Source: an uncultured Acidobacteriota bacterium
GTDB lineage: Bacteria > Acidobacteriota > JAAYUB01
Reading direction: 5' to 3'
Length of the DNA stretch: 64,000 nucleotides
NCBI GenBank assembly: GCA_964436005.1
Contig: CAYTBK010000006.1
Coordinates: forward strand, 2,212-66,211
Shown here: one piece after another, positions 9,964 to 53,813 of the stretch
How positions within the stretch are numbered: the first letter of the stretch is position 1
Layout of the letters: each line of letters starts with the position of its first letter
Program-made: the position numbers and the translations under genes
The notes under the pieces: model-generated
What the model was told of the DNA's origin: nothing
The model's database searches: none
The model's input: only the letters and a program-made list of their open reading frames with translations

Positions 9964-10814
9964 GCCGTGGCCTCCGCGCGCCGGATGCGCAGGTAGAGAA
10001 ACAGGATCGCCAGCAGCGCCGCCGCGGCGAGGATGACGACGGAGTACGCGGGATCCACCGCGAACTCCCTTTCCTGACCGAAGAAAAAAGCCCCGGTGTG
10101 GTTGATGTTGCGGTTGACGGAGAGCAGGTGCCAGCCCTCCATGTGGGTGATCTCGGTGAGGATGGCCGCCACGGCGTCCGAGAAGAAGAACACGGCCACC
10201 AATATGATGCGGACGAAGTTGAGCCGTTCGCTCAAGGTCGAGAGGAAGAGGGTCATGGCGGCCAGGAAGAGACCGACCAGCAACGGGAAGGCCACCATGG
10301 CCAGCCAGAGGTCTGGTTTCAGGATCAGGCTGCCGGAGAAGACCATCTTCAGGATGAAGAGGACAATTCCCGGGACGAGGGTGAAGAGCAGCAGGTAGAA
10401 GAGCACGGTGGACAGCTTGCCGGCGAGGTAGCCGGTACGGGAGAGGGGCCGCGAGAAGTATAGCGGCAGGGCCCGCAGGCGGAGGTCCCCCGAGATCAGC
10501 CCCGCCCCGCTGAAGATGCACAGCACCACCAGGATGAAAATCAGGAAGTTGTTGGTGTAGAACATGTGGAAGATGGAGGCGTCCGACTGGAGGCTGCGCA
10601 CCAGGCGGGAGAACATCTTCAGTTCCGGCTTGGCCACCGCGTAGATGACGGCCAGGAAGAACAGGAAGGGCGTGGCGCCAAGGAAGAAGACGAGCCCCGC
10701 GTACTTCTGCCTGGCCACCCGCCGGATGCCGTTGCGCAGGATCGGGAGCCAGCGCATCCCCGGGCGGGTGACTTCGCCTTCCCACCCCATGTAACCTTTC
10801 TGCCTAATTCCCAT
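9960..10814 (-). CDS. ABC transporter permease (ABC-2-like)
   Basis: 284 aa polytopic membrane protein; overlaps neighbours on both sides. Confidence 0.7.
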   Translation of the reverse strand: MGIRQKGYMGWEGEVTRPGMRWLPILRNGIRRVARQKYAGLVFFLGATPFLFFLAVIYAVAKPELKMFSRLVRSLQSDASIFHMFYTNNFLIFILVVLCIFSGAGLISGDLRLRALPLYFSRPLSRTGYLAGKLSTVLFYLLLFTLVPGIVLFILKMVFSGSLILKPDLWLAMVAFPLLVGLFLAAMTLFLSTLSERLNFVRIILVAVFFFSDAVAAILTEITHMEGWHLLSVNRNINHTGAFFFGQEREFAVDPAYSVVILAAAALLAILFLYLRIRRAEATA

Positions 10815-11727
10815 GATTTTCCTCCACGGCCTGGATGAAGGCCTCCTCCAGGGTGATGCGGCTGCGCTGCAGGCGACGGATCTGCACGCCGCACCGGCGG
10901 GCCGCCCGGAACAGGGTCCGGGTGGTCTCCCCCGGGGGGAGTTCGACGCGGTAGTTTTCCCGTTCCTTCTCCTCCAGGCGGCAGCGGGCCTCCTCCAGTT
11001 CAGCCCGGAACGGCCCCGCCTCCCCCTTGAAAGCCAGGTCGAACACCTCGCCCATGGCGGGGTGCAGGTCGCCCACGGGCTTTTCCGCCACCACCCGGCC
11101 GTTGTCCATTATCACAACATCTTTGCATGTCGACTCTAGGTCCGGCAGCAGGTGGGTGGAGAGGATGATGTTCTTCCCCTCGGTGGCGGCGATGTCGCGG
11201 ATCAGTTCCAGCATGGCCTGGCGCCCGGCCGGGTCCATACCGGAGGTGGGTTCGTCGAGGAGCAGCATGCCGGGATCGTGGACGATGGCCTGGGCCAGCT
11301 TCAGGCGTTGCCGCATGCCGGTGGAGTAGGTCTCCACCAGCCGGTAGCGGGCCTCCTCCAGCCCCACGTAGTAGAGGACGTCGTGGGCCCGCTTGATGGC
11401 CTCCCGGCGCGGCATGCCGCTCAGTTCGCCGAGGTAGGCGGTGAATTCCACCGCGTCCATGCCCGGCAGCAGGGAGTCGCTCTCCGGCATGTAGCCGACG
11501 TTGCGGCGGAATTCCCGGAGGTCGCCCCCCAGGCCCTGGCCGAACACCGAGCCGGTGCCGGACGAGGGCCGCAGGAAGCCCAGCAGGATCTTCATGAGGG
11601 TCGTCTTGCCGGCGCCGTTGGGGCCCAGCAGCCCGTGGATGCCCCCGCCGATGCGCAGGCGGACGCCGTCCAGGGCGGTCACGTCGCCGTAGCGGAAGCG
11701 GATGTCGTCGAGGATGATCATTTCCAT
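10804..11727 (-). CDS. ABC transporter ATP-binding protein
   Basis: MEMIILDDIRFRYGD...[15 protein letters not shown]...LLLDEPTSGMD; start at 11727 (or MIILDD at 11721). Confidence 0.85.
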   Translation of the reverse strand: MEMIILDDIRFRYGDVTALDGVRLRIGGGIHGLLGPNGAGKTTLMKILLGFLRPSSGTGSVFGQGLGGDLREFRRNVGYMPESDSLLPGMDAVEFTAYLGELSGMPRREAIKRAHDVLYYVGLEEARYRLVETYSTGMRQRLKLAQAIVHDPGMLLLDEPTSGMDPAGRQAMLELIRDIAATEGKNIILSTHLLPDLESTCKDVVIMDNGRVVAEKPVGDLHPAMGEVFDLAFKGEAGPFRAELEEARCRLEEKERENYRVELPPGETTRTLFRAARRCGVQIRRLQRSRITLEEAFIQAVEENHGN

Positions 11728-12009
11728 GTGGGGTCGTCCTTGCCCGGCCGGGTGATTTCCGGCGCCCTTCCGGCTCCCCGTGGCTACCTTTCGCTGGTGG
11801 GCCGCGTGGCGGCCCGGGCGCCGGATCCGTCTTGACCGACCGGAAACACAGACTACGATGCGGCGGGGGGAAAAAGTTCCCGGAACACGTTGCATTCACG
11901 GTTTTCAGGGAGGACCAGGCACAGGCGCCCAGCCGCCCGAATGCGGGATGAACCATTGACCCCAATGAGGGGAACAGGCGGCCGTCCTGGTTTTCCTGCC
12001 CTGTTCGCC

Positions 12010-12095
12010 GGGTGTCCATGAATTTTGTTGGGTGTCCATGATTTTGCCCCCGAGTATGGTTGGGTGTCCATCACCGTTCGGCTGGGTGTCCATGA
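12010..12095. repeat. Four direct copies of 12-mer GGGTGTCCATGA (12010-12021, 12030-12041, 12062-12073 as GGGTGTCCATCA, 12084-12095), spacing 20/32/22 bp, in the divergent promoter region
   Basis: Read directly from sequence; the track shows it as repeated MDTQ in small minus-strand ORFs. Confidence 0.8.
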
Positions 12096-12258
12096 AGGGA
12101 AGAACAGGAACCGCGGAGGGGCGCGGAGAAGCGCGGAGGGGGATTGAAAAAGTCTCGTTGGCAGCCCTCGGCGGCTTTCCGTGTGCCTCTGCGGTTAACT
12201 CTCTTTAGAATCTATACATCGCCGGATTGGGGATTGCCCGATTTGCCTGATCGATGTC

Positions 12259-12293
12259 GGCTGTCCATGAAAATAATGATTGGGTGTCCACGA
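12259..12293. repeat. Two further copies of the same motif (GGCTGTCCATGA 12259-12270; GGGTGTCCACGA 12282-12293), same orientation
   Basis: Read directly from sequence. Confidence 0.7.
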
Positions 12294-12445
12294 AACCAGT
12301 TATAATTCATCCAATTGATTCGTCAAATAGTTGGGCTTTATTGAAAAGCATGGTGGAAAAACGATCTCCGGCCTTTGGGGTTTTCCGGGTGTCTTCGGGG
12401 ATCCTTGGGTCGAAGCCCTTTCGCAGAAGAACCAGGAGGTTCGAC

Positions 12446-13924
12446 ATGTTCCTGCCGATCAAGGCGGTGGTGTGCTGGCTGATTTTACTCGACTTCTCCG
12501 GGGAGGCCATGCGGGCCCAGGCGGTCGGGCCTGCTCCCGACCCCGAACTGGCCGCCATCGGGAAAACCATCGACGACGCCATCGGGTGGTTCCGGACCAA
12601 GGATTTCGCCCGGCTCTTCGAAATCTTCGACAGCGGGGCCGAACTGTTCATCTACCATCCGGATTCCGGCACCACGATCCGGGGCTTCGAAGCTTTCCGC
12701 AAGAACGCAGGCGCCTTTGCGGACCCCGACTTCGTTTACGCCGGCCACGCTTTGCGCGACCTGCAGGTGCACCGTTCCGCGGGCGGCGACACGGCCTGGT
12801 TCTCCGCCCTTCTGGAAGACTGCTGGTCGTACCGGGGGAAGAAGGGATGCTGGAAGGACTGCCGCTGGACGGGCGTCCTGTGCCGGCGGAACGGGAAGTG
12901 GGTGATTGCCCAGCTGCATTTTTCCTTCGCCCGGGACACCCTGCTGGCGGAAACCCCCTTCTTCGAGGAAAAATTCCAGGGGCCGGGTGGACTGGTCGGC
13001 CCTGCCCGGACCGCGGAGTACCTGGTGCGTGACGGCGGTCCGGTCCTTCGACTGGAAGGACTCCTGTTCCTGAAGGAGTTGCGGCGGGAGGACTTCCGCC
13101 TGGAGGTGGAAATCCTGGCCGAGGGCCCGTGCTACCCCGGTGTCGCCTTTCACGCCCGGGACGGGTCCGACTACGAGCTGGCCTACCCCGTTCCCCATGC
13201 CAGCGGCCAGCCCGACGCCATCCAGTACGATCCCGTCTTCCGCGGCGGGAATTCCTGGCAACTGTTCAACGGCCCGCCGTACCAGAAAAGTGCGGTCGTT
13301 CCGTTGCGGGAGTGGTTCACCCTGCGCCTGAACGTGCATCGCGGACGGGTTTCCGTGCAGGTGAACGACCAGGATCCCCTGGTGGTGGAGCGGCTGGCGC
13401 ACGGTGCCGGGCCCGGCGGCATCGGGCTGTGGAGCTATCGCCCGGCCTTCTTCCGCAACCTGCGGGTGTTCCCCGCGAGACCCATCCCCGAGACCGGGGT
13501 CAGGGCCACGGCGCCGGCGGACGCGGTTTCCTCGTGGCGGGCCCCGGACGGTTCCCGGTTGCGGGCGGGCGACAACGGCGTGGTGGACGCCGGTGCCGCG
13601 CTGGATCCGGCGACTCGCCAGGCGGTGCTTTCCCGTTCCTTCACCCTGGCGGAAGAGGCCGACGTGACTTTCGGCTTGGGTTTCAGCGATGCCGTCGTGC
13701 TGCGGGTGGATGGCGAGGAGCTCTTCCGGGGTGAGAACCGCTTCCGCGGTTTTGCCGACCTGCCCTCCCGCGGGTGGGTGACGCCGAATGCGCAGACGGT
13801 TCGGAAAAGCCTGTCGGCCGGGACGCACGTCGTGCAGGTGGAACTGTCGGCCCTGGAGCCCTTCGGCTGCGGATTCGTGCTCACGGCGGCGGGCCGGGGC
13901 CTCTCCTTTCCGGACTCGCCCTGA
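12446..13924 (+). CDS. Secreted hypothetical protein; NTF2/SnoaL-like N-terminal domain and a DUF1080-like (laminin-G/3-keto-disaccharide hydrolase-like) central domain
   Basis: Start MFLPIKAVVCWLILL (signal/TM) at 12446 with AGGAGG RBS 12433-12438; motif GGIGLWSYRPAFFRNLRVF resembles DUF1080; domain calls tentative. Confidence 0.6.
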   Translation: MFLPIKAVVCWLILLDFSGEAMRAQAVGPAPDPELAAIGKTIDDAIGWFRTKDFARLFEIFDSGAELFIYHPDSGTTIRGFEAFRKNAGAFADPDFVYAGHALRDLQVHRSAGGDTAWFSALLEDCWSYRGKKGCWKDCRWTGVLCRRNGKWVIAQLHFSFARDTLLAETPFFEEKFQGPGGLVGPARTAEYLVRDGGPVLRLEGLLFLKELRREDFRLEVEILAEGPCYPGVAFHARDGSDYELAYPVPHASGQPDAIQYDPVFRGGNSWQLFNGPPYQKSAVVPLREWFTLRLNVHRGRVSVQVNDQDPLVVERLAHGAGPGGIGLWSYRPAFFRNLRVFPARPIPETGVRATAPADAVSSWRAPDGSRLRAGDNGVVDAGAALDPATRQAVLSRSFTLAEEADVTFGLGFSDAVVLRVDGEELFRGENRFRGFADLPSRGWVTPNAQTVRKSLSAGTHVVQVELSALEPFGCGFVLTAAGRGLSFPDSP

Positions 13925-16356: not shown

Positions 16357-18726
16357 ATGGCGGAATCGAACGAAGACAAGCTGAAGCGAGACTGCGAAGA
16401 GCGGTTGCGCTTCGAATCCCTGGTCACCGAACTGTCGGCCTCGTTCATCATCCGGCCCTCCGAGCAGGTCGACGCGGAGATCGTGGACACCCTCCGCCGG
16501 ATCTGCGAGGGACTCGCTATCGACGGGTGCGCCATATGGATGTGGTCGCCGGAGGCCCCGGAAAGCCTCGCCCTGACCCACTACTTCCGCCTGGTGGACG
16601 GACCGATCCCGCCGGAACCCATGCGCGCTCGGGAGTATTATCCCTGGTGCATGCAAGAATTGTCGGCGGGAAGGACCGTCGTCGTCCCATCCCTGGACGA
16701 CCTCCCGCCCGAGGCGGCCCGCGACCGGGAATCCTGGCGCCACTTCGGCATCCAGTCGGCCCTGGTGTTCCCGCTGTCGGCGGGGGGGCGCCCCCCGATC
16801 GGGGTGCTGTCCTTCAACGCCATGCGGGAGGCGCGCCCCTGGCCGGAACATACGGTCAAGCGGCTTCACCTGGTGGCGGGGATCTTCGCCAACGCTCTCT
16901 ACCGGAAGAATTCGGACCGGGCCCTTCGGGAGAGCGAGGCGCGGCTGAGCCTGGCCGCGGCGTCGGCGAACGCAGGCCTGTGGAGCCTGGACCTGGAGAC
17001 CGGCCAGTTCTGGGTCACGGCCAAAGCCAAGGAGCTGTTCCACTTCGCACCGGACTTGGACGTCACCTTGGACCGCTTCTTCGACGTCGTCCACCCTGAG
17101 GACCGCGACCGGGTCCGGCAAGCGGTGGACGACGCGGTCCGGGAGCGGGGTGAAATCCGCGTCGAGTACCGCATCGTGTTCCCGGATGGCGAAACCCGGT
17201 GGATCGTCTCCCGGGGAATGACCCAGGCAAGCGAATCCGGGAAGCCGGACCACCTGGCGGGCGTCTCGCTGGACGTTTCCGAGCGCAAGCGGCACGAGCG
17301 CTCCCTCCTGGAGCACAAGGCGCGGCTCGAGGCCGCCATCGAAGCGGCGGACCTCGGCTTCTACGAAATGCGCACCCCTCCGATGTTCGTGTTCCTGGAC
17401 GCGCGCGTCCAGAAACTGTTCGGCCTCCCGCCCGGGAATGAGCACCAGGCACGGGACTTCTTCCTGGAACACGTCCACTCCGAGGACCGCGGAAAGGTGA
17501 TCGACTTGAGCCGGGAGATGCTGACGGGAAAGCTGAACCGGGCACGGCTCGTTTACCGCTACCTGCACCCGGACCGGGGAGAGCTTTGGTTCAGCCACTC
17601 GGCCCGGGTCACGGGGCGTGACGAGGACGGCCGGGCCCTGGGAACCGTGGGCGCCATCCGGGACATCACGGAGGAAAAACGCTACGAAACGTCGCTGCAG
17701 ACGGCTCTCGAAGAGATCCGGGAACTGAAGGACCGGCTGCAGCAGGAGAACGTCTACCTTCGCGAGGAGATCACCCACGGGTACGAGCAGGGCAGCATCA
17801 TCGGGCACGGCGCAGCCATCCAGAAGACGCTGCAAATGGTCAACCAGGTGGCCCCGACCCTGTCCACCGTGCTCATCCAGGGGGAGACCGGCACGGGGAA
17901 GGAGCTCATCGCCCATCTCATCCACCAGCTCAGCCCGAGGGCCGACCGGCTGATGATCACGGTCAACTGTTCCGCCCTGCCCGAGACGCTCGTCGAGAGC
18001 GAGCTGTTCGGGCGGGAGAAGGGGGCCTTCACGGGTGCGCTGACGCGGCAGGCCGGCCGTTTCGAACTCGCCGACGGATCGACGATCTTCCTCGACGAGA
18101 TCGGCGAACTGACGCCCGTCGTCCAGGTCCGGCTGCTCCGCGTCCTCCAGGAGGGCTGCCTGGAGCGCCTGGGAAGTTCGAAGACCATCTCCGTGAACGT
18201 GCGCATCATCGCCGCCACCAACCGGGACCTGGCGGCCGAGGTCCGCCGGGGCACCTTCCGGCAGGACCTGTACTACCGCCTCAACGTGTTTCCCATCCAG
18301 GTTCCCCCCTTGCGGGAGCGCCCCGACGACATCCCGCTCCTGGTCCGGTCCTTCGCCGAGGAGTTCTCCAAGCGGATGGGCCGGAGCGTCCTACAGGTGC
18401 CGCGCCGGGTCATGGAGGCGCTCCAGCTCTACCACTGGCCCGGGAACGTCCGCGAGCTTCGCAACGTCATCGAGCGGGCGGTGATCGTCTCCACCGGCCA
18501 CACCCTCCAGGTCGACCTCCCGGTGGCGGCCGCGGACGCCGCCGCCATCCCCGTCTCCCTCGCCGATGCCGAGGCGGAGCTCATCCGCAAGACCCTGAAG
18601 CGGACCGGCGGGAGGATCAAGGGGCCCGGCGGCGCCGCTGCCCAGCTCGGGATGAAACCCTCGACGCTGTATTCCCGCATGAACAAGCTCGGCATCTCCC
18701 CCCGTCGGGACGAGCCGGAGCCTTGA
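16357..18726 (+). CDS. Sigma-54-dependent transcriptional activator with GAF and two PAS domains (Fis-type HTH)
   Basis: GETGTGKE, GAFTGA motif, C-terminal HTH; start MAESNEDK at 16357. Confidence 0.85.
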   Translation: MAESNEDKLKRDCEERLRFESLVTELSASFIIRPSEQVDAEIVDTLRRICEGLAIDGCAIWMWSPEAPESLALTHYFRLVDGPIPPEPMRAREYYPWCMQELSAGRTVVVPSLDDLPPEAARDRESWRHFGIQSALVFPLSAGGRPPIGVLSFNAMREARPWPEHTVKRLHLVAGIFANALYRKNSDRALRESEARLSLAAASANAGLWSLDLETGQFWVTAKAKELFHFAPDLDVTLDRFFDVVHPEDRDRVRQAVDDAVRERGEIRVEYRIVFPDGETRWIVSRGMTQASESGKPDHLAGVSLDVSERKRHERSLLEHKARLEAAIEAADLGFYEMRTPPMFVFLDARVQKLFGLPPGNEHQARDFFLEHVHSEDRGKVIDLSREMLTGKLNRARLVYRYLHPDRGELWFSHSARVTGRDEDGRALGTVGAIRDITEEKRYETSLQTALEEIRELKDRLQQENVYLREEITHGYEQGSIIGHGAAIQKTLQMVNQVAPTLSTVLIQGETGTGKELIAHLIHQLSPRADRLMITVNCSALPETLVESELFGREKGAFTGALTRQAGRFELADGSTIFLDEIGELTPVVQVRLLRVLQEGCLERLGSSKTISVNVRIIAATNRDLAAEVRRGTFRQDLYYRLNVFPIQVPPLRERPDDIPLLVRSFAEEFSKRMGRSVLQVPRRVMEALQLYHWPGNVRELRNVIERAVIVSTGHTLQVDLPVAAADAAAIPVSLADAEAELIRKTLKRTGGRIKGPGGAAAQLGMKPSTLYSRMNKLGISPRRDEPEP

Positions 18727-19509: not shown

Positions 19510-21942
19510 ATGCGGATCCGATTGATTGTCATGTTTTTATGCGCCGTGCTGATGCCGGCAGCGATTCTGGCAGAAGGTCCGGCGTCGCAACCCTGGACCA
19601 GAATGAAAACGGCGCCGGATGGGACCCAGGTCATTCTGTACCAGCCCCAGGTGGACGACTGGGCGTCCCATGCTCGTCTGGACTACCGCCTGGCCGCGGA
19701 AATCCTGCCGCCGGGGGCGAAGCGATCCATCCCGGCGGCATTGCAAATGACCGCCGAGACGAACACCGATCTTTCCACCCGGACGGTGGTGCTCTACAAC
19801 CAGAAAATCGTGAACGTTTCTTTCCCTTCGGCAGACGAAGCCACTGCCCAGAAGCTGACCACACTCCTGACGCAGCTTGTGCCCTCCGGGCCCCTGAAGA
19901 TGTCGGTCGACCTGATCCTGTCCTATGAAGGAGATGCGGAGGCTTCCCATCGGACGGCGCCGGAAGGACCGGTGCAACCTGTCCCGGCGGCGCCGGAAGC
20001 GCCGGTGATCCTCTGCCGCACGACACCGGCGGTTCTGGTGATCTTCGACGGCGAACCGGTGTTCGCCCCGGTCGAAGGAACCGCCTTGCAGTTCGCCCTG
20101 AACACCAATTGGCTGGTGTTGCGGGAGGCGGGGAAAACCGAGTGTTACCTGTTGAACGAGACTTTCTGGCTGAAGGGCGCAGGGATCACGGGGCCCTGGG
20201 CGCCGGCCGGCAAACTGCCCCGGTCCTTCTGGGCGCTCCCCAAGGAGGAGCAGTGGGCGGACGCCCGTGCCCACCTGCCGGGGAAATCCGTCTCCGCCGC
20301 CAAGGCGCCGAAAGTCCTCGTGAGCTTCAAGCCGGCGGAGCTGATCCTGCTCAAGGGCGCCCCCGCCCGGGCGGCCATTCCCGGCACCGGCCTCTCCTGG
20401 GTGAAAAACACGGAAAGCGACCTTTTCTGGAACAAGGCCGACCAGAGCTTCTATTTCCTGGTTTCCGGCCGCTGGTTCCGCTCCCTGAAACCGGAAGGGC
20501 CGTGGGCCGCCGTCGCCGGCGACGCCCTGCCCGCGGACTTTGCCCGGATCCCCGCCGACCACGCCAAGGGGAAGGTCCGGGTCTCCGTGCCCGGCACGCC
20601 GGAGGCGAAGGAGGCGGCGATGCTGGCCCAGGTCCCGCACAAGGCCGAGGTGAAGCGCAGCGAGGTCACGGTGGACGTCAAGTACTCGGGCGACCCCGAG
20701 TTCAAGCCGGTGGAGGGCACGACCCTGGCCTACGCCGTCAACACCGCCTTCGACGTCATCAAGTTCAAGGAAAAGTACTACTGCTGCCACCAGGCCGTCT
20801 GGTTCGTGGCGGTCTCGCCCGCCGGACCGTGGGCCGTGGCCGACAGCGTGCCGAAGGAAATCTACACCATTCCACCGAGCAACCCCAAATACAATGTGAC
20901 GTACGTCACGGTGTACGAGTCCACGCCGAGCACGGTCACCACGGGCTACACGGCGGGCTACCTGGGCGCGTTCGTGATCGGCGCCTGCGTGGTGTACGGT
21001 TCGGGCTACTACTACCCGCCCTACTGGTACTACCCCCCGGGAATCCACTATCCGGTGTACTATCCTCGCCCTTACTCGTACGGGTGCGCGGCCGCCTACA
21101 ACCCCTACACGGGCACCTTCGCCCGCGGGGCCGTGGCCTACGGCCCTTACGGCGGCTGTGGTCACGCCGCGGCCTACAACCCTTACACCGGCACCTACGC
21201 CCGCGGGGCGGCCGCCTGGGGCCCCTACGGCGGGCGTGGCTACGCCGAGGCCTACAACCCGTACACCGGCGCCTGGGGCCAGAAAGCGGCCGCTTACGGG
21301 CCCGGCGGGCAGGCGGCCTACGCCGCCCGGGGCTACAACCCTTCCACCGGGCGTGGGGGGGCCACCTACCAGCGGTCTTCCCCCTACGCCAACTGGGGGC
21401 AGTCCGTGGTGACCAAGGGGGACGAGTGGGCCCGGACCGCCCACTATTCCGACTCCCGGGGAACCATGGCCGGCTACGAGACCTCCCAGGGGGGGAAGGG
21501 GGTGGGGATTTCCACGGACCACGGCACCACCACCGTGCGGAAGACCCACGACGACGACCTCTACGCCACCCACGACGGGAACGTCTACAAGAAGTCCGAC
21601 GACGGGTCCTGGCAGAAATACGAGGACGGGTCGTGGAACTCGGTGAACAAGCCGACCCCCCAGGAAAAATCGGCCAGCCGGACATCGGCCACGGCCAACA
21701 CCCAGCAGGCGAAATCGGCCGGCACGGGGACGGTCTCCGCTGACCGGGTCCAGGCGACGGCAACCGGGAGCGGGTCGGCGCGGTCGTCGGCGTCCGACTC
21801 CTGGAACCGGGATTCCCGGCAGCTTCAGCGCGACCATCAGGCCCGGTCCGATTCCGCCCGGCGGCAGAGGAGTTTCGATTCCTGGCGCAGCGGGTCCGGC
21901 GGCAGCTCTGGCGGCGGCCGCGCCAGGGGCCGGCGGCGGTGA
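19510..21942 (+). CDS. Large secreted hypothetical protein with C-terminal Tyr/Gly/Pro-rich tandem repeats (AAYNPYTGTxARG x4) and Ser/Arg-rich tail
   Basis: Signal peptide MRIRLIVMFLCAVLMPAAILA at 19510 with GGAGGAAG RBS; track ORF 19423..21942. Confidence 0.65.
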   Translation: MRIRLIVMFLCAVLMPAAILAEGPASQPWTRMKTAPDGTQVILYQPQVDDWASHARLDYRLAAEILPPGAKRSIPAALQMTAETNTDLSTRTVVLYNQKIVNVSFPSADEATAQKLTTLLTQLVPSGPLKMSVDLILSYEGDAEASHRTAPEGPVQPVPAAPEAPVILCRTTPAVLVIFDGEPVFAPVEGTALQFALNTNWLVLREAGKTECYLLNETFWLKGAGITGPWAPAGKLPRSFWALPKEEQWADARAHLPGKSVSAAKAPKVLVSFKPAELILLKGAPARAAIPGTGLSWVKNTESDLFWNKADQSFYFLVSGRWFRSLKPEGPWAAVAGDALPADFARIPADHAKGKVRVSVPGTPEAKEAAMLAQVPHKAEVKRSEVTVDVKYSGDPEFKPVEGTTLAYAVNTAFDVIKFKEKYYCCHQAVWFVAVSPAGPWAVADSVPKEIYTIPPSNPKYNVTYVTVYESTPSTVTTGYTAGYLGAFVIGACVVYGSGYYYPPYWYYPPGIHYPVYYPRPYSYGCAAAYNPYTGTFARGAVAYGPYGGCGHAAAYNPYTGTYARGAAAWGPYGGRGYAEAYNPYTGAWGQKAAAYGPGGQAAYAARGYNPSTGRGGATYQRSSPYANWGQSVVTKGDEWARTAHYSDSRGTMAGYETSQGGKGVGISTDHGTTTVRKTHDDDLYATHDGNVYKKSDDGSWQKYEDGSWNSVNKPTPQEKSASRTSATANTQQAKSAGTGTVSADRVQATATGSGSARSSASDSWNRDSRQLQRDHQARSDSARRQRSFDSWRSGSGGSSGGGRARGRRR

Positions 21943-34831: not shown

Positions 34832-34989
34832 GCATGGGCGGAAGACCGGAGGCTGCCGTGCGGCCTGGACAGGCGGGCGCCTCCCGGTCTTGCCGCCGTT
34901 GTGAATGTTTGGTATGCATCATCCAGGAAGCGCTTGGAAAACGCCCGGTTTTCCCCTTGCCTTTCTTGGTGCCCACCGCGAGGGGAGCC

Positions 34990-35362
34990 GAACCAGCCGA
35001 ATAGCAATTCGCAAGGAAAACACAATTTTTGTGGCTGGTGCCTACTCGCGGAACAAGACCTGCGCGGCTACTCCTTTGGCAAGTACCAGGATCGGCTGTT
35101 GATGGAAGCCCAGGTGGAATACCGGCGGGATGTCTGGTGGCGCCTGGGCCTGAAGGCTTTCGCCGGGGTGGGCGGGGTGGGGAAGAGGATCTCCGACCTG
35201 GATTCGCGGGGGGGCCTCTTCCGTTTGGCGGTGGGCGCCGGGTTGAAGCGTCGAGACAGGGTTCCCCTCGTCGCCCGCCGGCGAGACATGTCCTCCGGAC
35301 GCAGCGCAGCGCCGGGGGGCGAGTCAGAGGCCCCGACGGCGCTGCGGAACGGTTGGGGGTGA
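34990..35362 (+). pseudogene. Remnant of the C-terminal ~90 aa of an Omp85/bacterial-surface-antigen beta-barrel protein
   Basis: LLAEQDLRGYSFGKYQDRLLMEAQVEYRRDVWWRLGLKAFAGVGGVGKRISDLDSRGGLFRLAVGAGLKR matches the Omp85 C-terminal consensus; no POTRA/barrel upstream; tail frame-shifted. Confidence 0.3.
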
Positions 35363-35415
35363 AGCGGCCCACCCCCTTTTCCTTCGGATGAAGAAACCGG
35401 TGGTTCAGATCCCCC

Positions 35416-36366
35416 TCAAAACACGAACGCCAGTTTTCCGAAGACGGAGTTTCCCTTCAGGCGGTTTTTCACGTTGAGTTCCGGAAGCCACTTGACTTCG
35501 GCAGCTATCAGCGCCTTTTTCGTGTGCTTGATGAAGGACAGGGCCGGCCCGACGCCGAAGGACCGCCCCTTGAAATCGCCCAGCTTGGCCCCGGAGCCGC
35601 TGTCGCCGGTGATCTGTTGATAGTAATAGATGTTCGCGCCGATTCCCCATATGGCGTGCGACTTGGTCATCCAGTGTTTCGCCACGGTCCCCTCGACATG
35701 CCATTGGGTTCCGGTTTTGTAGTCGGTCTCGTCGTTGGTGGTGTTGAAGTCGACCCCGGTGAAGAGGCTGACTTCCACCATGTTCTGATGGCCCATGTAG
35801 CTCATGTAGAAGGTCGGTTCGAAGGTCCAGTAGTTCTTCCCCAGGTTGGCCAGGTTCGTCCTTTCGTATTTGCCTGTCGGTGCGTAGAAGCCCATGAGCG
35901 TGCCGATGTTGAAGTCCTTGACCTTCCATCCGATCGTGAAGGGGGCGAAGAACATGTCGCCCAGTCCGCTGGTGGTCTGGCTGCGGTGAACCAATCCGTT
36001 GGGGGTTTCCAGGTCGGCTTCCACGGTGAGGTGGGCAACGGGAAGGCTGGCGAGGGCGGCGCACTGGCCGCCAAGGACCTTGGGCTTGAAGGTGTACACC
36101 ACGAGCATGCAGTCGGCGTACGCAGTTCCCTTGAGGTTCAGGCTCACGCTGCCGATGATCGGGATTTCTTTCCCGACGCCCGCCTCGCCCTTGTAGAAGG
36201 AAAAGATGTTTACGAGAGTGAAACCCGGCTTCAGGGGCAGGGCGTCGACGCAGTCCGACAACGCTCCCGGCATGTAATGCCCGCTCGCCGCTTCTTCGGC
36301 CAGGGTGGGGACGATCGCTGACGCGACCAGGATCAACAGAATGAGTGATAAGGCAAGTTTTTTCAT
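35416..36366 (-). CDS. Outer-membrane beta-barrel protein (MetA-pathway/transporter family-like)
   Basis: Start MKKLALSLILLILVASAIVPTLA at 36366 with AGGAGG RBS; ends GKLAFVF. Confidence 0.7.
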   Translation of the reverse strand: MKKLALSLILLILVASAIVPTLAEEAASGHYMPGALSDCVDALPLKPGFTLVNIFSFYKGEAGVGKEIPIIGSVSLNLKGTAYADCMLVVYTFKPKVLGGQCAALASLPVAHLTVEADLETPNGLVHRSQTTSGLGDMFFAPFTIGWKVKDFNIGTLMGFYAPTGKYERTNLANLGKNYWTFEPTFYMSYMGHQNMVEVSLFTGVDFNTTNDETDYKTGTQWHVEGTVAKHWMTKSHAIWGIGANIYYYQQITGDSGSGAKLGDFKGRSFGVGPALSFIKHTKKALIAAEVKWLPELNVKNRLKGNSVFGKLAFVF

Positions 36367-36764
36367 CGGTCCTCCTGAATATCTTTCCGAATGTCGTTCG
36401 TTTCGTTGCTGATCGCTCCCAGGGGCATCCTGTCGATGCCCAAGGGATCCGGGATGTCGGTTCAGACGGTTGCCGCCACGATCCGGCCAGATGCCATGGA
36501 CTGTCACGGAGGCTTTTTGCACGATCGATGCCAAATCCGGGCTTCCCAACCGAAAATTGCTATGTTGTGATCTGTGAAGTTGTTGGAGAATCAATTGCTC
36601 CAACGGTCACGACGGCCCGCCTCGATGGCGGTCGACATTTCGCCCGCGGGACGGCATTTCGTCTGATTCGGCGACCGAGGGCAACTCCTCCCTGGGGAAA
36701 AGTCCTTGTGTATCTGATTCCAAAGTAGAAAGATGCACGCGGTGGTGCCGCCTGCCGCGGGAGA

Positions 36765-36780
36765 ATGGCACCGGTCGTGC
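36765..36780 (+). promoter_or_regulatory. Candidate sigma-54 promoter TGGCACcggtcgTGCA
   Basis: Same GG-N10-GC geometry and near-identical sequence to the element at 19014. Confidence 0.45.
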
Positions 36781-36793
36781 ATCAATATTCGGT

Positions 36794-37123
36794 ATGACCA
36801 TGATTACCGTCCTCAAGATCGTACCCGCCGGCGGCAAAAAGGATGCAGCTCTGGAGTTGCTCAGAGCCCTCGAGCGGCAGGCCAAAGGAGAGGCGGGGTG
36901 CCTGGACTGCCTGATCCTTGAACGCTCCGGGGGAGACAGGACGATCCTGTATCTCGACCGATGGAGCACCCTGGAAGACCTTTGCCGGCACGTCCAGTCT
37001 CCGGTGTATCGTGAGGTTCTGCAGGCCATGGAACTGAGCGCGAAGACCCCGGAGATCAGTTTCTACGAGGTTTCCGAAACCAAAGGCATGGAGTGGGTGG
37101 AGAAAGTGCGTTTGCAATCATGA
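36794..37123 (+). CDS. ABM-domain protein (paralog of 19040..19426)
   Basis: EAGCLDCLILERSGGDRTILYLDRWSTLEDLCRHVQSPVYREVLQAM ABM pattern. Confidence 0.65.
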   Translation: MTMITVLKIVPAGGKKDAALELLRALERQAKGEAGCLDCLILERSGGDRTILYLDRWSTLEDLCRHVQSPVYREVLQAMELSAKTPEISFYEVSETKGMEWVEKVRLQS

Positions 37124-37178
37124 CGGCCCCGCGGTTTTCGGCGCGAGTTTCGCCCTGCGCGGGGAAAAGAGGCGACCC

Positions 37179-39427: not shown

Positions 39428-39516
39428 TGGTGCCGAAGGAGGGAATCGAACCCTCACGAGCATCGCTGCCCGCCGGATTTTGAGTCCGGTGCGTCTGCCA
39501 GTTCCGCCACTTCGGC
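39428..39516 (-). tRNA. tRNA-Leu (anticodon CAA), 89 nt with long variable arm and encoded CCA
   Basis: Minus-strand sequence GCCGAAGTGGCGGAACTGGCAGACGCACCGGACTCAAAATCCGGCGGGCAGCGATGCTCGTGAGGGTTCGATTCCCTCCTTCGGCACCA; 7-bp acceptor stem, anticodon loop CUCAAAA. Confidence 0.85.
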
Positions 39517-52232: not shown

Positions 52233-52313
52233 ATAATTACTCCTTAAGATGATAGGGTCGGGGCCGATTTGGCATAATGTACCAGAAAGAGACGAAAAAC
52301 GGGCGGGGAAAGT

Positions 52314-53813
52314 TCACTCCGCGGTGAGGCCGAACCGTTTCAGCCGGTCGAGGAACGAGGGCCGGGTGATCCCGAGCAGCGCGGCGGCCCGGGTTCGGTT
52401 GCCTCCGGTCCTGTCCAGGGCGGCGCGCACCAACTGCTCTTCCAGGGCGTCCACGTTCCGGCGCAGGTCCAGGTCTTCCGGCGGGGCGGCGTTTTCCCGG
52501 GCCGGGGGCTCCGGGACGTCGCCGTCGCTTCCGCCTTCGACCGGCTCCTCGGCCAGGTTGGTGCCCTCGGTCAGGTAGCGGGACAGGCAGGCGGGGCCGA
52601 TGGGGGCCCCCGGTTCGGCCATGAGGGCCATGCGTTCCGCCTCGTTTTCCAGTTGGCGGACGTTGCCCGGCCAGGGGAGGCGTTCGAGGACCCGGTACGT
52701 CGCCTCGGCCACGGGAACGGGCCGGCAGCCGGACCGCTTCCAGGCCCGGTCGAGGAAGAACTCGGCCAGGGCCCGGATGTCGGCGGGGCGCTCCCGCAGG
52801 GGCGGCACCTCGAGCACAAACACGCTGAGGCGGAAGAACAGGTCCTCCCGGAAATTCCCCTTCTCCACTTCCGTGGCGAGGTCGCGGTTCGTGGAGGCGA
52901 TGATGCGCACGTCCACATTGACCGCGTGCTCCGCCCCCACGGGCCAGATCTCCCGGTTCTGCAAGGCCCGCAGCAGTTTGACCTGCAGTTCCAGGGGTGC
53001 CTCGCCGATCTCGTCCAGGAAGAGGGTCCCCCCCTCGGCCAGCTGGAAATAGCCCTTCCGGTTGGCGTGCGCCCCCGAAAAGGCGCCCTTCTGCCAACCG
53101 AAGAATTCGCTCTCCACCAGTTCGCGGGGGATGGCGCCGCAGTTCACCGCCACGAAGGGCCCTTTCCGCCGCGGGCTTCCCTGGTGGATCCGCCGGGCCA
53201 CCAGTTCCTTGCCGGTGCCCGTCTCGCCGGTCACGAGGACGGTGGACTCGGACCCGGCGATCTTGTCGGCCGAGCGAACCACGCTATCCATGGCCGGGCT
53301 CCGGAAGATGAAGTTGTCGGCGTCCATGAAGCGCTTGACGTCGTTCTTGAGGGCCCGGTTCTGGGCCTTGAGCTTCTCGTTGGCCTCGCGCAGCTCCTCG
53401 GCCAGGCGCCGGTTCTCCCGTTCCAGGTCCCGCTTCTCCAGGGCCTGGCGGACCACGATGCGCATCTCCTCGGGCTCCCAGGGCTTGGTGATGTAGCGGT
53501 AGACGTGGCCCTCGTTGATGGCGTCGATGAGGTCCTCGGTGTCAGTGTAGCCGGTGAGGATGATCCGCATGGCGTCCGGCCTGATGCGCAGAAAGCGCTT
53601 GAGCAGCTCCACGCCGCTCATGCGGGGCATGCGCTGGTCGGAGATGACCAGGTCGACATCGATCTTTTTGGCCAGGTCCAGGGCCTCCTCGGCCGAGGTG
53701 GCCTCGTAGACGCGGTAACGGCCCAGGAAGGTCCGCTTGAGCTTCTGCAGGTTGGCCGGCTCGTCGTCGACGACCAGCAGGGTGTGCCGGATTTCCGTTC
53801 CGTTTCCCGTCAT
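52314..53813 (-). CDS. Sigma-54-dependent response regulator (NtrC family: REC + AAA+ + HTH)
   Basis: C-terminal 499 aa of track ORF 52314..55430 from MTGNGTEIRHTLLVVDDEP; GETGTGKE, GAFSGA. Confidence 0.9.
   Translation of the reverse strand: MTGNGTEIRHTLLVVDDEPANLQKLKRTFLGRYRVYEATSAEEALDLAKKIDVDLVISDQRMPRMSGVELLKRFLRIRPDAMRIILTGYTDTEDLIDAINEGHVYRYITKPWEPEEMRIVVRQALEKRDLERENRRLAEELREANEKLKAQNRALKNDVKRFMDADNFIFRSPAMDSVVRSADKIAGSESTVLVTGETGTGKELVARRIHQGSPRRKGPFVAVNCGAIPRELVESEFFGWQKGAFSGAHANRKGYFQLAEGGTLFLDEIGEAPLELQVKLLRALQNREIWPVGAEHAVNVDVRIIASTNRDLATEVEKGNFREDLFFRLSVFVLEVPPLRERPADIRALAEFFLDRAWKRSGCRPVPVAEATYRVLERLPWPGNVRQLENEAERMALMAEPGAPIGPACLSRYLTEGTNLAEEPVEGGSDGDVPEPPARENAAPPEDLDLRRNVDALEEQLVRAALDRTGGNRTRAAALLGITRPSFLDRLKRFGLTAE

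Follow-up and report, generated by a model that had tools for sequence, protein, structure and literature searches.

Six short repeats in a single orientation occupy the gap between two divergently transcribed genes of a 64-kb window (the whole stretch of DNA analysed here), and the question they raise is whether they serve those two genes or belong to a system of their own. The initial annotation read them as an array of transcription-factor binding sites, in the manner of OmpR/PhoB-type regulators, or as an iteron-like element, in either case controlling the glycosylation/export operon on one side of the gap.

The repeat array and its setting

The gap measures 718 bp, in agreement with the annotation, and separates an ABC ATPase gene on the minus strand (10804–11727), which is the first gene of an ABC-2 transporter/glycosyltransferase operon (assigned by Pfam and by an identical database protein), from a gene on the plus strand (12446–13924) for a secreted SnoaL_3/DUF1080 (3-keto-disaccharide-hydrolase-like) protein that is identical to a 492-amino-acid database entry. 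The array starts 283 bp upstream of the ATPase gene and its last copy lies 153 bp from the secreted-protein gene. A search for the 12-mer GGGTGTCCATGA, extended to mismatched copies, located six copies on the plus strand between 12010 and 12293. Copies 1 (12010–12021), 2 (12030–12041, with the T at position −1 that the family consensus, described below, also has) and 4 (12084–12095) are exact. Copy 3 (GGGTGTCCATCA, 12062–12073) carries one mismatch (...CATCA) outside an exact nine-nucleotide core, copy 5 (GGCTGTCCATGA, 12259–12270) one mismatch near its beginning (GGCTG...) and copy 6 (GGGTGTCCACGA, 12282–12293) one mismatch (...CCACGA) that creates a CCAC variant common elsewhere in such arrays. 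With three exact copies and three that deviate by one base, the original count of six copies of the 12-mer was slightly generous; the layout that it described, with four copies spaced by 20, 32 and 22 bp and two more farther downstream, all in the same orientation, is correct; the fourth and fifth copies are 175 bp apart, and the last interval is 23 bp.

The nine-nucleotide core is exact in five of the six copies despite diverged spacers, T occupies position −1 in four copies, the window sequence is GGGTGTCCATGA(A)TTTTG, and a repeat finder places all of the copies in one family. With up to two mismatches, the 12-mer occurs 16 times in the window against 5.8 ± 2.5 times in shuffled sequences, none of 100 shuffles reached 16, and chance is no explanation for the repeats. 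Copies of the core cluster at this single place in the 64 kb, and a search with the same core found no minus-strand partner array in the window. A lone one-mismatch copy (GGGTGTCCACGA) on the minus strand at 16481–16492, inside a sigma-54 activator gene, was judged to be a chance match since 64 kb should yield about 0.3 such matches and since it is not oriented as a partner end would be. CRISPR repeats are 23–55 nt long, with regular spacers of similar length; a 12-nt core at irregular intervals of 20–175 bp with no cas genes nearby bears out the annotation in setting CRISPR aside. At OmpR/PhoB-type sites, short direct repeats follow each other at intervals of about one helical turn, and the comparison with them does not hold for 12-nt units at irregular spacings of at least 20 bp.

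Two further features lie within the gap. A triple repeat of CGCGGAG on the plus strand (12112–12141; Tandem Repeats Finder, period 10, three copies), which had been noticed initially, forms the 5′ arm of an 88-nt imperfect hairpin on the same strand (12109–12196) between the four-copy and two-copy blocks. The hairpin has an RNA minimum free energy of −58.2 kcal/mol (z = −5.1, with none of 200 shuffles as stable; z = −2.9 for the minus strand) and has neither a good U-tract after it nor an Rfam family match. At 138 other arrays there is no excess of hairpins outside the arrays (the best 90-nt fold averages −14.8 kcal/mol, compared with −15.4 kcal/mol in the background), and a hairpin does not generally accompany such arrays at other loci. 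The second feature is an A+T-rich segment (12201–12345) of 41% G+C, compared with 66% for the window, that holds copies 5 and 6; A+T-rich spacers are typical of the repeat family, G+C-rich hosts included.

The array DNA itself (11990–12310) folds no better than shuffled sequences (z = −1.05), and within the core the only self-complementarity is a 3-bp TGG/CCA mini-palindrome (TGG-GTGT-CCA). These results bear on the idea of a small RNA with a repeated protein-binding motif, such as a CsrA-type sponge transcribed from the minus strand. The AUGGA in the reverse complement of the motif and the stable plus-strand hairpin that follows the four-copy block would fit such an RNA, but the array is unstructured, its GGA triplets lie outside hairpin loops, no Rfam family matches the window array or any of 18 others, and the inverted arrangement around a gene that is described below would be unexpected for a sponge; we regard this reading as highly unlikely. 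The sole match in the window with Rfam or ARAGORN is a tRNA-Leu(CAA) gene on the minus strand (39428–39516). Separately, two long stretches of the window (34832–37178 and 52233–53809) contain no open reading frame that passes the codon-position G+C filter and may be atypical genes or non-coding DNA.

The iteron-like element proposed initially would correspond here to iterons from the replication origin or the partition system of an integrated plasmid or phage. Direct repeats about 20–32 bp apart next to an A+T-rich stretch are what such an element would offer. Nevertheless, no rep or par gene lies nearby, the gap holds no DnaA box even when one mismatch is allowed, there is no GC-skew switch, and in the viral collection the motif-pair pattern used below gave only ten matches, several of which are short-period tandem repeats and none of which is accompanied by the HUH gene described below. 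The chance that the repeats are iterons is thus very small.

The gap also contains no sigma-54 promoter match, and the promoter scan returned two sigma-70-like sites where 0.2 are expected. A sigma-70-like match at 12070–12041 on the minus strand, directed towards the ABC operon, consists of TGGACA, an 18-nt spacer and CAAAAT, and its −35 hexamer is the reverse complement of part of a repeat copy; TGGACA is present on the minus strand in every copy in the window. The closest relative of the ABC ATPase, at 75% identity (locus L127), has no copy of the motif in the 341 bp upstream, which is all that its contig spans. Homologues of the secreted protein (53–63% identity) occur in Acidobacteria metagenome-assembled genomes in a different gene neighbourhood; their loci carry no array and say little because synteny differs. 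Judged by these sequence comparisons, the array is not conserved with its neighbour genes, and beyond the repeats themselves the gap has nothing in common with the other loci at which the motif was found.

Arrays across phyla and the HUH/Y1 gene that they frame

Pairs of GGGTGTCCAT copies 8–30 nt apart were sought in one genome of each bacterial and archaeal species. The resulting sample, which is biased to the exact 10-mer, comprises at least 118 loci from many phyla, including Alteromonadales, Shewanella, Vibrio, Aeromonas, Acidobacteriota, Chloroflexota, Actinomycetes and others. Twelve loci with short, regularly spaced tandem repeats inside long open reading frames were set aside as unrelated. 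Among the loci listed, about 30 contain intergenic arrays of 3–15 or more copies, mostly in one orientation, with copies 18–41 bp apart and no helical period. The spacers are alike within a locus, and between loci only the core is shared; similar arrays with this core adjoin unrelated genes in Gammaproteobacteria, Acidobacteriota, Chloroflexota and other phyla. In a profile weighted per locus, T is found at position −1 in 91% and G at position −2 in 62%. Neither position was part of the search pattern, and the unit is therefore (g)T-GGGTGTCCA-T. Extensions of the core resembling that of the window are found in an Oceanospirillales genome (GGGTGTCCATGAATTTT) and in an Acidobacteriota unit (L057; GGGTGTCCATGATTC). 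Tandem arrays with the same 10-mer in Faecalimonas umbilicata (L040, period 36–37 nt, with the 10-mer on both strands of each tandem unit) and in two viral contigs (L220 and L222, period 33 nt) lack an HUH gene, and these repeats are probably unrelated.

A kept core, variable spacers, direct copies and the lack of a fold together look like an array of protein-recognition sites. To this extent the binding-site interpretation of the initial annotation stands; the part that assigned the sites to a dedicated regulon is not supported, as the motif spans phyla.

All-against-all comparison of neighbouring open reading frames, followed by a profile search of every locus, identified one HUH/Y1 family that is encoded at about 22 of the 118 motif-first loci listed (8 kb per locus). 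Full-length members have about 325 to 372–380 residues, with a 55-residue insertion and a C-terminal domain. Profile searches gave no Pfam domain above threshold and no PDB relative; scores to Pfam Y1_Tnp and to NCBIfam REP_Tyr_transpos (39 bits, with a cut-off of 80) are weak, and JGI names the proteins ‘REP element-mobilizing transposase RayT’ or ‘putative transposase’. An AlphaFold model of one member was unusable (pLDDT 42; 26 sequences, at least 67% identity). The L057 protein and the A1 consensus contain the motifs NHYH, WE (FWE at this position) and YVDLNP; gammaproteobacterial members have NHLH or NHTH and 325–333 residues. These motifs and the length match the signature of TnpA_Y1 subclass 2.3 (NHYH, WE, YVDLNP, about 325 residues) in Table 1 of Quentin et al. 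(2018; PMC6006769). Subclass 2.3 proteins have a median length of about 325 residues, with core insertions and a long C-terminal tail, and are prevalent in Alteromonadales, where several diverged copies occur per genome; REP-like sequences were not found around their genes, whether by automatic or by manual searching (Quentin et al., 2018; PMC6006769). The family is very large (7654 matches), with close homologues in Acidobacteriota-type, soil or sediment metagenomes.

The repeats frame this gene according to a strict strand rule. When motif-first loci are oriented so that the gene reads on the plus strand, the upstream copies are nearly all on the minus strand and the downstream copies nearly all on the plus strand; the ends are therefore inverted, with GGGTGTCCAT pointing outward from the gene. 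Complete units have one to seven (g)T-GGGTGTCCA-T copies on each side, and the long contigs L128 (part of a 1.96-Mb contig) and L129 show the same inverted framing; Shewanella decolorationis S12 and Paraglaciecola chathamensis are further examples of genomes with motif-positive units. In a reverse test, we took 80 metagenome loci chosen solely for the presence of the protein and searched them for the exact 9-mer. A minus-strand copy lies within 400 bp upstream of the gene in 51 of the 61 loci for which at least 120 bp are present, with no plus-strand copies, and a plus-strand copy lies within 500 bp downstream in 32 of the 38 loci for which at least 350 bp are present, with one minus-strand copy. 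Inside the HUH genes of this sample the motif is absent from both strands (0 copies in 89.5 kb of coding sequence).

At most protein-first loci one upstream copy is fixed 75–78 nt (mostly 77 nt) before the start codon. In a soil/sediment clade (L149, L172, L209, L211 and others) this copy is followed by a conserved block, TTTTTCTTGGCACTTTCC...GGTTAGAAG...GGAGG. The copy and the block may constitute the promoter, operator or 5′ leader of the HUH gene.

There are exceptions to the association. A plasmid of Saccharobesus litoralis (NZ_CP026605.1; L130–L134) encodes a 44%-identical HUH paralogue (167548–168642), and GGGTGTCCA is absent from this 208-kb replicon, with no obvious substitute array at the flanks of the paralogue. 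A unit on a Shewanella plasmid is decayed and has a single degenerate copy of the motif. Given these two plasmids, the link between motif and gene holds for clades and not for the whole family. The Saccharobesus plasmid also has a truncated second HUH copy (164680–164892).

These data allow the operator interpretation to be weighed, in which a dedicated array would let a host transcription factor regulate both the ABC/glycosyltransferase operon and the divergent secreted-protein gene. The position between two divergent starts and the use of the TGGACA of the motif as a −35 element both favour it, and the copy held at −77 in the HUH units indicates that the motif can lie in a promoter. On the other hand, the same core adjoins unrelated genes across phyla and frames HUH genes by a strict strand rule, neither the DNA upstream of the nearest ABC homologue nor the loci with homologues of the secreted protein contain it, and a spacing of 18–41 bp with no helical period is unlike that of OmpR/PhoB-type sites. 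We consider a dedicated operator array quite improbable.

Gene-less forms and the window array

Many genome loci carry one-sided arrays with no HUH gene in the 8 kb examined per locus, and orphan copies were also found near HUH genes in L128, L129 and L152. In L128 a one-sided trio (20692–20790) lies about 9.5 kb from the HUH gene of that contig. L152 (3303–3453) and L129 (15868–15906 and 16417–16455) contain inverted doublets, each made up of a left-end copy and, about 30 bp from it, a right-end copy (TGGACACCCa.t.ttttttgcatctttgatGGGTGTCCAc). The doublets of the two contigs share nearly the same 50-nt sequence, consisting of TGGACACCC, a spacer of about 21 nt and GGGTGTCCA, and have the appearance of REPIN/MITE-type derivatives of the HUH unit. 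Within about 2 kb of L129 (14.9–16.9 kb), 4–6 kb from its HUH gene, there are about a dozen more copies. The surroundings of the HUH unit and copies in L129 (9100–18300) are densely occupied by toxin–antitoxin pairs (PIN/PhdYeFM, MazE/PIN and ParE) and also contain a DDE transposase.

The window contains a single cluster of copies and no homologue of the HUH gene (the best tblastn match has an E-value of 0.18 and a profile search found nothing at E ≤ 1). With neither the gene nor a partner array, the array is therefore an orphan and one-sided. We conclude that it is probably a gene-less cluster of the repeat that ends RAYT-like HUH/Y1 genes with the subclass 2.3 signature. If the orientation rule of the family is applied, the ‘interior’ side of the array is the one towards the ABC operon.

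Within the orphan-array explanation, the serious rival is a dead relic: one end of a former or copied HUH element, with no partner protein in the genome and with inactive, decaying sites. The array is one-sided in 64 kb that hold no HUH gene, the 12-mer is already altered in three of the six copies, and the Shewanella plasmid provides an instance of a decayed unit with a single degenerate copy. However, five of the six nine-nucleotide cores are still exact while the spacers have diverged, orphan arrays lie near intact HUH genes in other genomes, and a family of such size has its close homologues in metagenomes of the Acidobacteriota, soil and sediment type. A relic is the less favoured form of the orphan reading and, on balance, unlikely.

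For a living orphan array, each core would be a recognition site of the HUH protein, which in the case of the window would be encoded elsewhere in the genome, and several sites 20–40 bp apart could load several protomers. Arrays would arise and spread through the activity of the protein together with local duplication, as REP/BIME clusters depend on RAYT. Any influence on the two divergent promoters, for example through the −35-like TGGACA that faces the ABC operon, would be a side effect. Such a side effect on local transcription is possible, as is a local regulatory role, given that the array lies within a divergent promoter region. For the annotation of the window, the interpretation of the repeats as a private regulon of the glycosylation/export operon is probably wrong and they are better marked as mobile-element-type repeats; the feature would be an ordinary member, an orphan array, of the repeat variant described here.

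Relation to known repeat systems

A REP/BIME unit is an imperfect palindrome of 20–40 nt that forms a single-stranded stem-loop with GTAG (or CGTC) at the foot of the hairpin. The REP/BIME, REPIN and RAYT systems (‘REPtrons’) and the new family both have a single HUH/Y1 gene between inverted short repeats. Inverted copies around a RAYT-like gene are thus found in the repeat family, though not at the window array, which has no gene. The gene-less intergenic singles, inverted doublets and clusters, as observed on individual contigs, may likewise be REP-like, and the protein appears to be a distant RAYT relative, judging from its weak REP_Tyr_transpos match and its JGI name. The differences are equally clear. 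Neither the 20–40 nt palindrome nor the GTAG/CGTC tag is present in the window copies, for which the unit is a core of 10–12 nt; the new family forms direct-repeat arrays, unlike REP; unlike the lineage-specific REPs, it keeps its core from phylum to phylum; and its protein is twice the length of RAYT, with extra domains.

Several same-orientation sites at irregular spacings of 20–40 bp with inverted ends are also characteristic of the ends of Mu and Tn7 and of the iterons of HUH rolling-circle Rep proteins (geminivirus/CRESS). The resemblance to these is an analogy only, since the enzymes are unrelated (DDE) or belong to a different HUH class, and, in contrast to the Rep iterons, no nick-site hairpin was found next to the new arrays.

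A closer precedent is provided by the TIRtrons, in which RAYT-like genes (TIRYTs) lie between inverted repeats that are not hairpins and in which some repeats are dispersed as singles, dimers and groups (Di Nocera et al., 2013; PMC3733652). TIRYTs include a well-defined Acidobacteria group, and their repeats have the common motif GGGGWSAS (PMC3733652). The new family resembles them in having a RAYT-like gene framed by inverted repeats that do not form stem-loops, but neither (T)GGGTGTCCA(T) nor its complement fits GGGGWSAS, and TIRYTs mostly belong to subclass 2.1, not 2.3. The text of PMC3733652 mentions neither multi-copy direct arrays at the ends nor the GGGTGTCCA motif or its complement. 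Compared with subclass 2.3 as surveyed in PMC6006769, the family described here has the same signature motifs, its genes are framed by arrays with a conserved core, and it extends beyond that survey to Acidobacteriota and NC10-type soil and sediment bacteria. Taken at the level of its sequences, the new family follows the logic of REPtrons and TIRtrons without the defining sequence features of either, and it appears to add multi-copy direct arrays and a core common to many phyla.

No description of repeats of subclass 2.3, or of the motif or its complement, was found among the literature matches listed; the text matches to the motif proved unrelated, a primer in one case. As the 2018 survey found no repeats around subclass 2.3 genes (PMC6006769), the association of motif and gene looks undescribed, a variation on the REP/RAYT and TIRtron theme.

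How the core might be read can be considered from its structure. On viewing the listed copies, with no formal count, we saw no co-variation in the flanking bases that would extend the 3-bp stem. In view of this short stem, the lack of a significant fold and the lack of an accompanying hairpin, reading of the core as a duplex by the family-specific extra domains seems more likely than hairpin recognition of the IS200/IS605 and REP type. Tentatively, and with more doubt than attaches to the assignment of the window array, we propose that the arrays may be an undescribed, phylum-spanning RAYT-associated repeat, in which subclass 2.3 proteins read a near-invariant core of 10–12 bp in direct copies, probably as a duplex. 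If so, the repeat would exist in three forms (autonomous units, MITE/REPIN-like inverted doublets and long one-sided arrays), an IS200/RAYT-type enzyme would have a different mode of end recognition, and it would be explained why a dedicated search found no repeats around subclass 2.3 genes. The framing core is a candidate DNA substrate for this orphan subclass, and it offers a simple signature for annotating intergenic repeats from marine Gammaproteobacteria to soil Acidobacteriota.

A last observation concerns assembly. A Logan short-read contig from the same organism (L001, 2.4 kb) starts at window position 12430, to the right of the array and of the A+T-rich segment, and the top-matching homologues of the HUH gene lie mostly on contigs shorter than 3 kb, which hints that the repeats break short-read assemblies.
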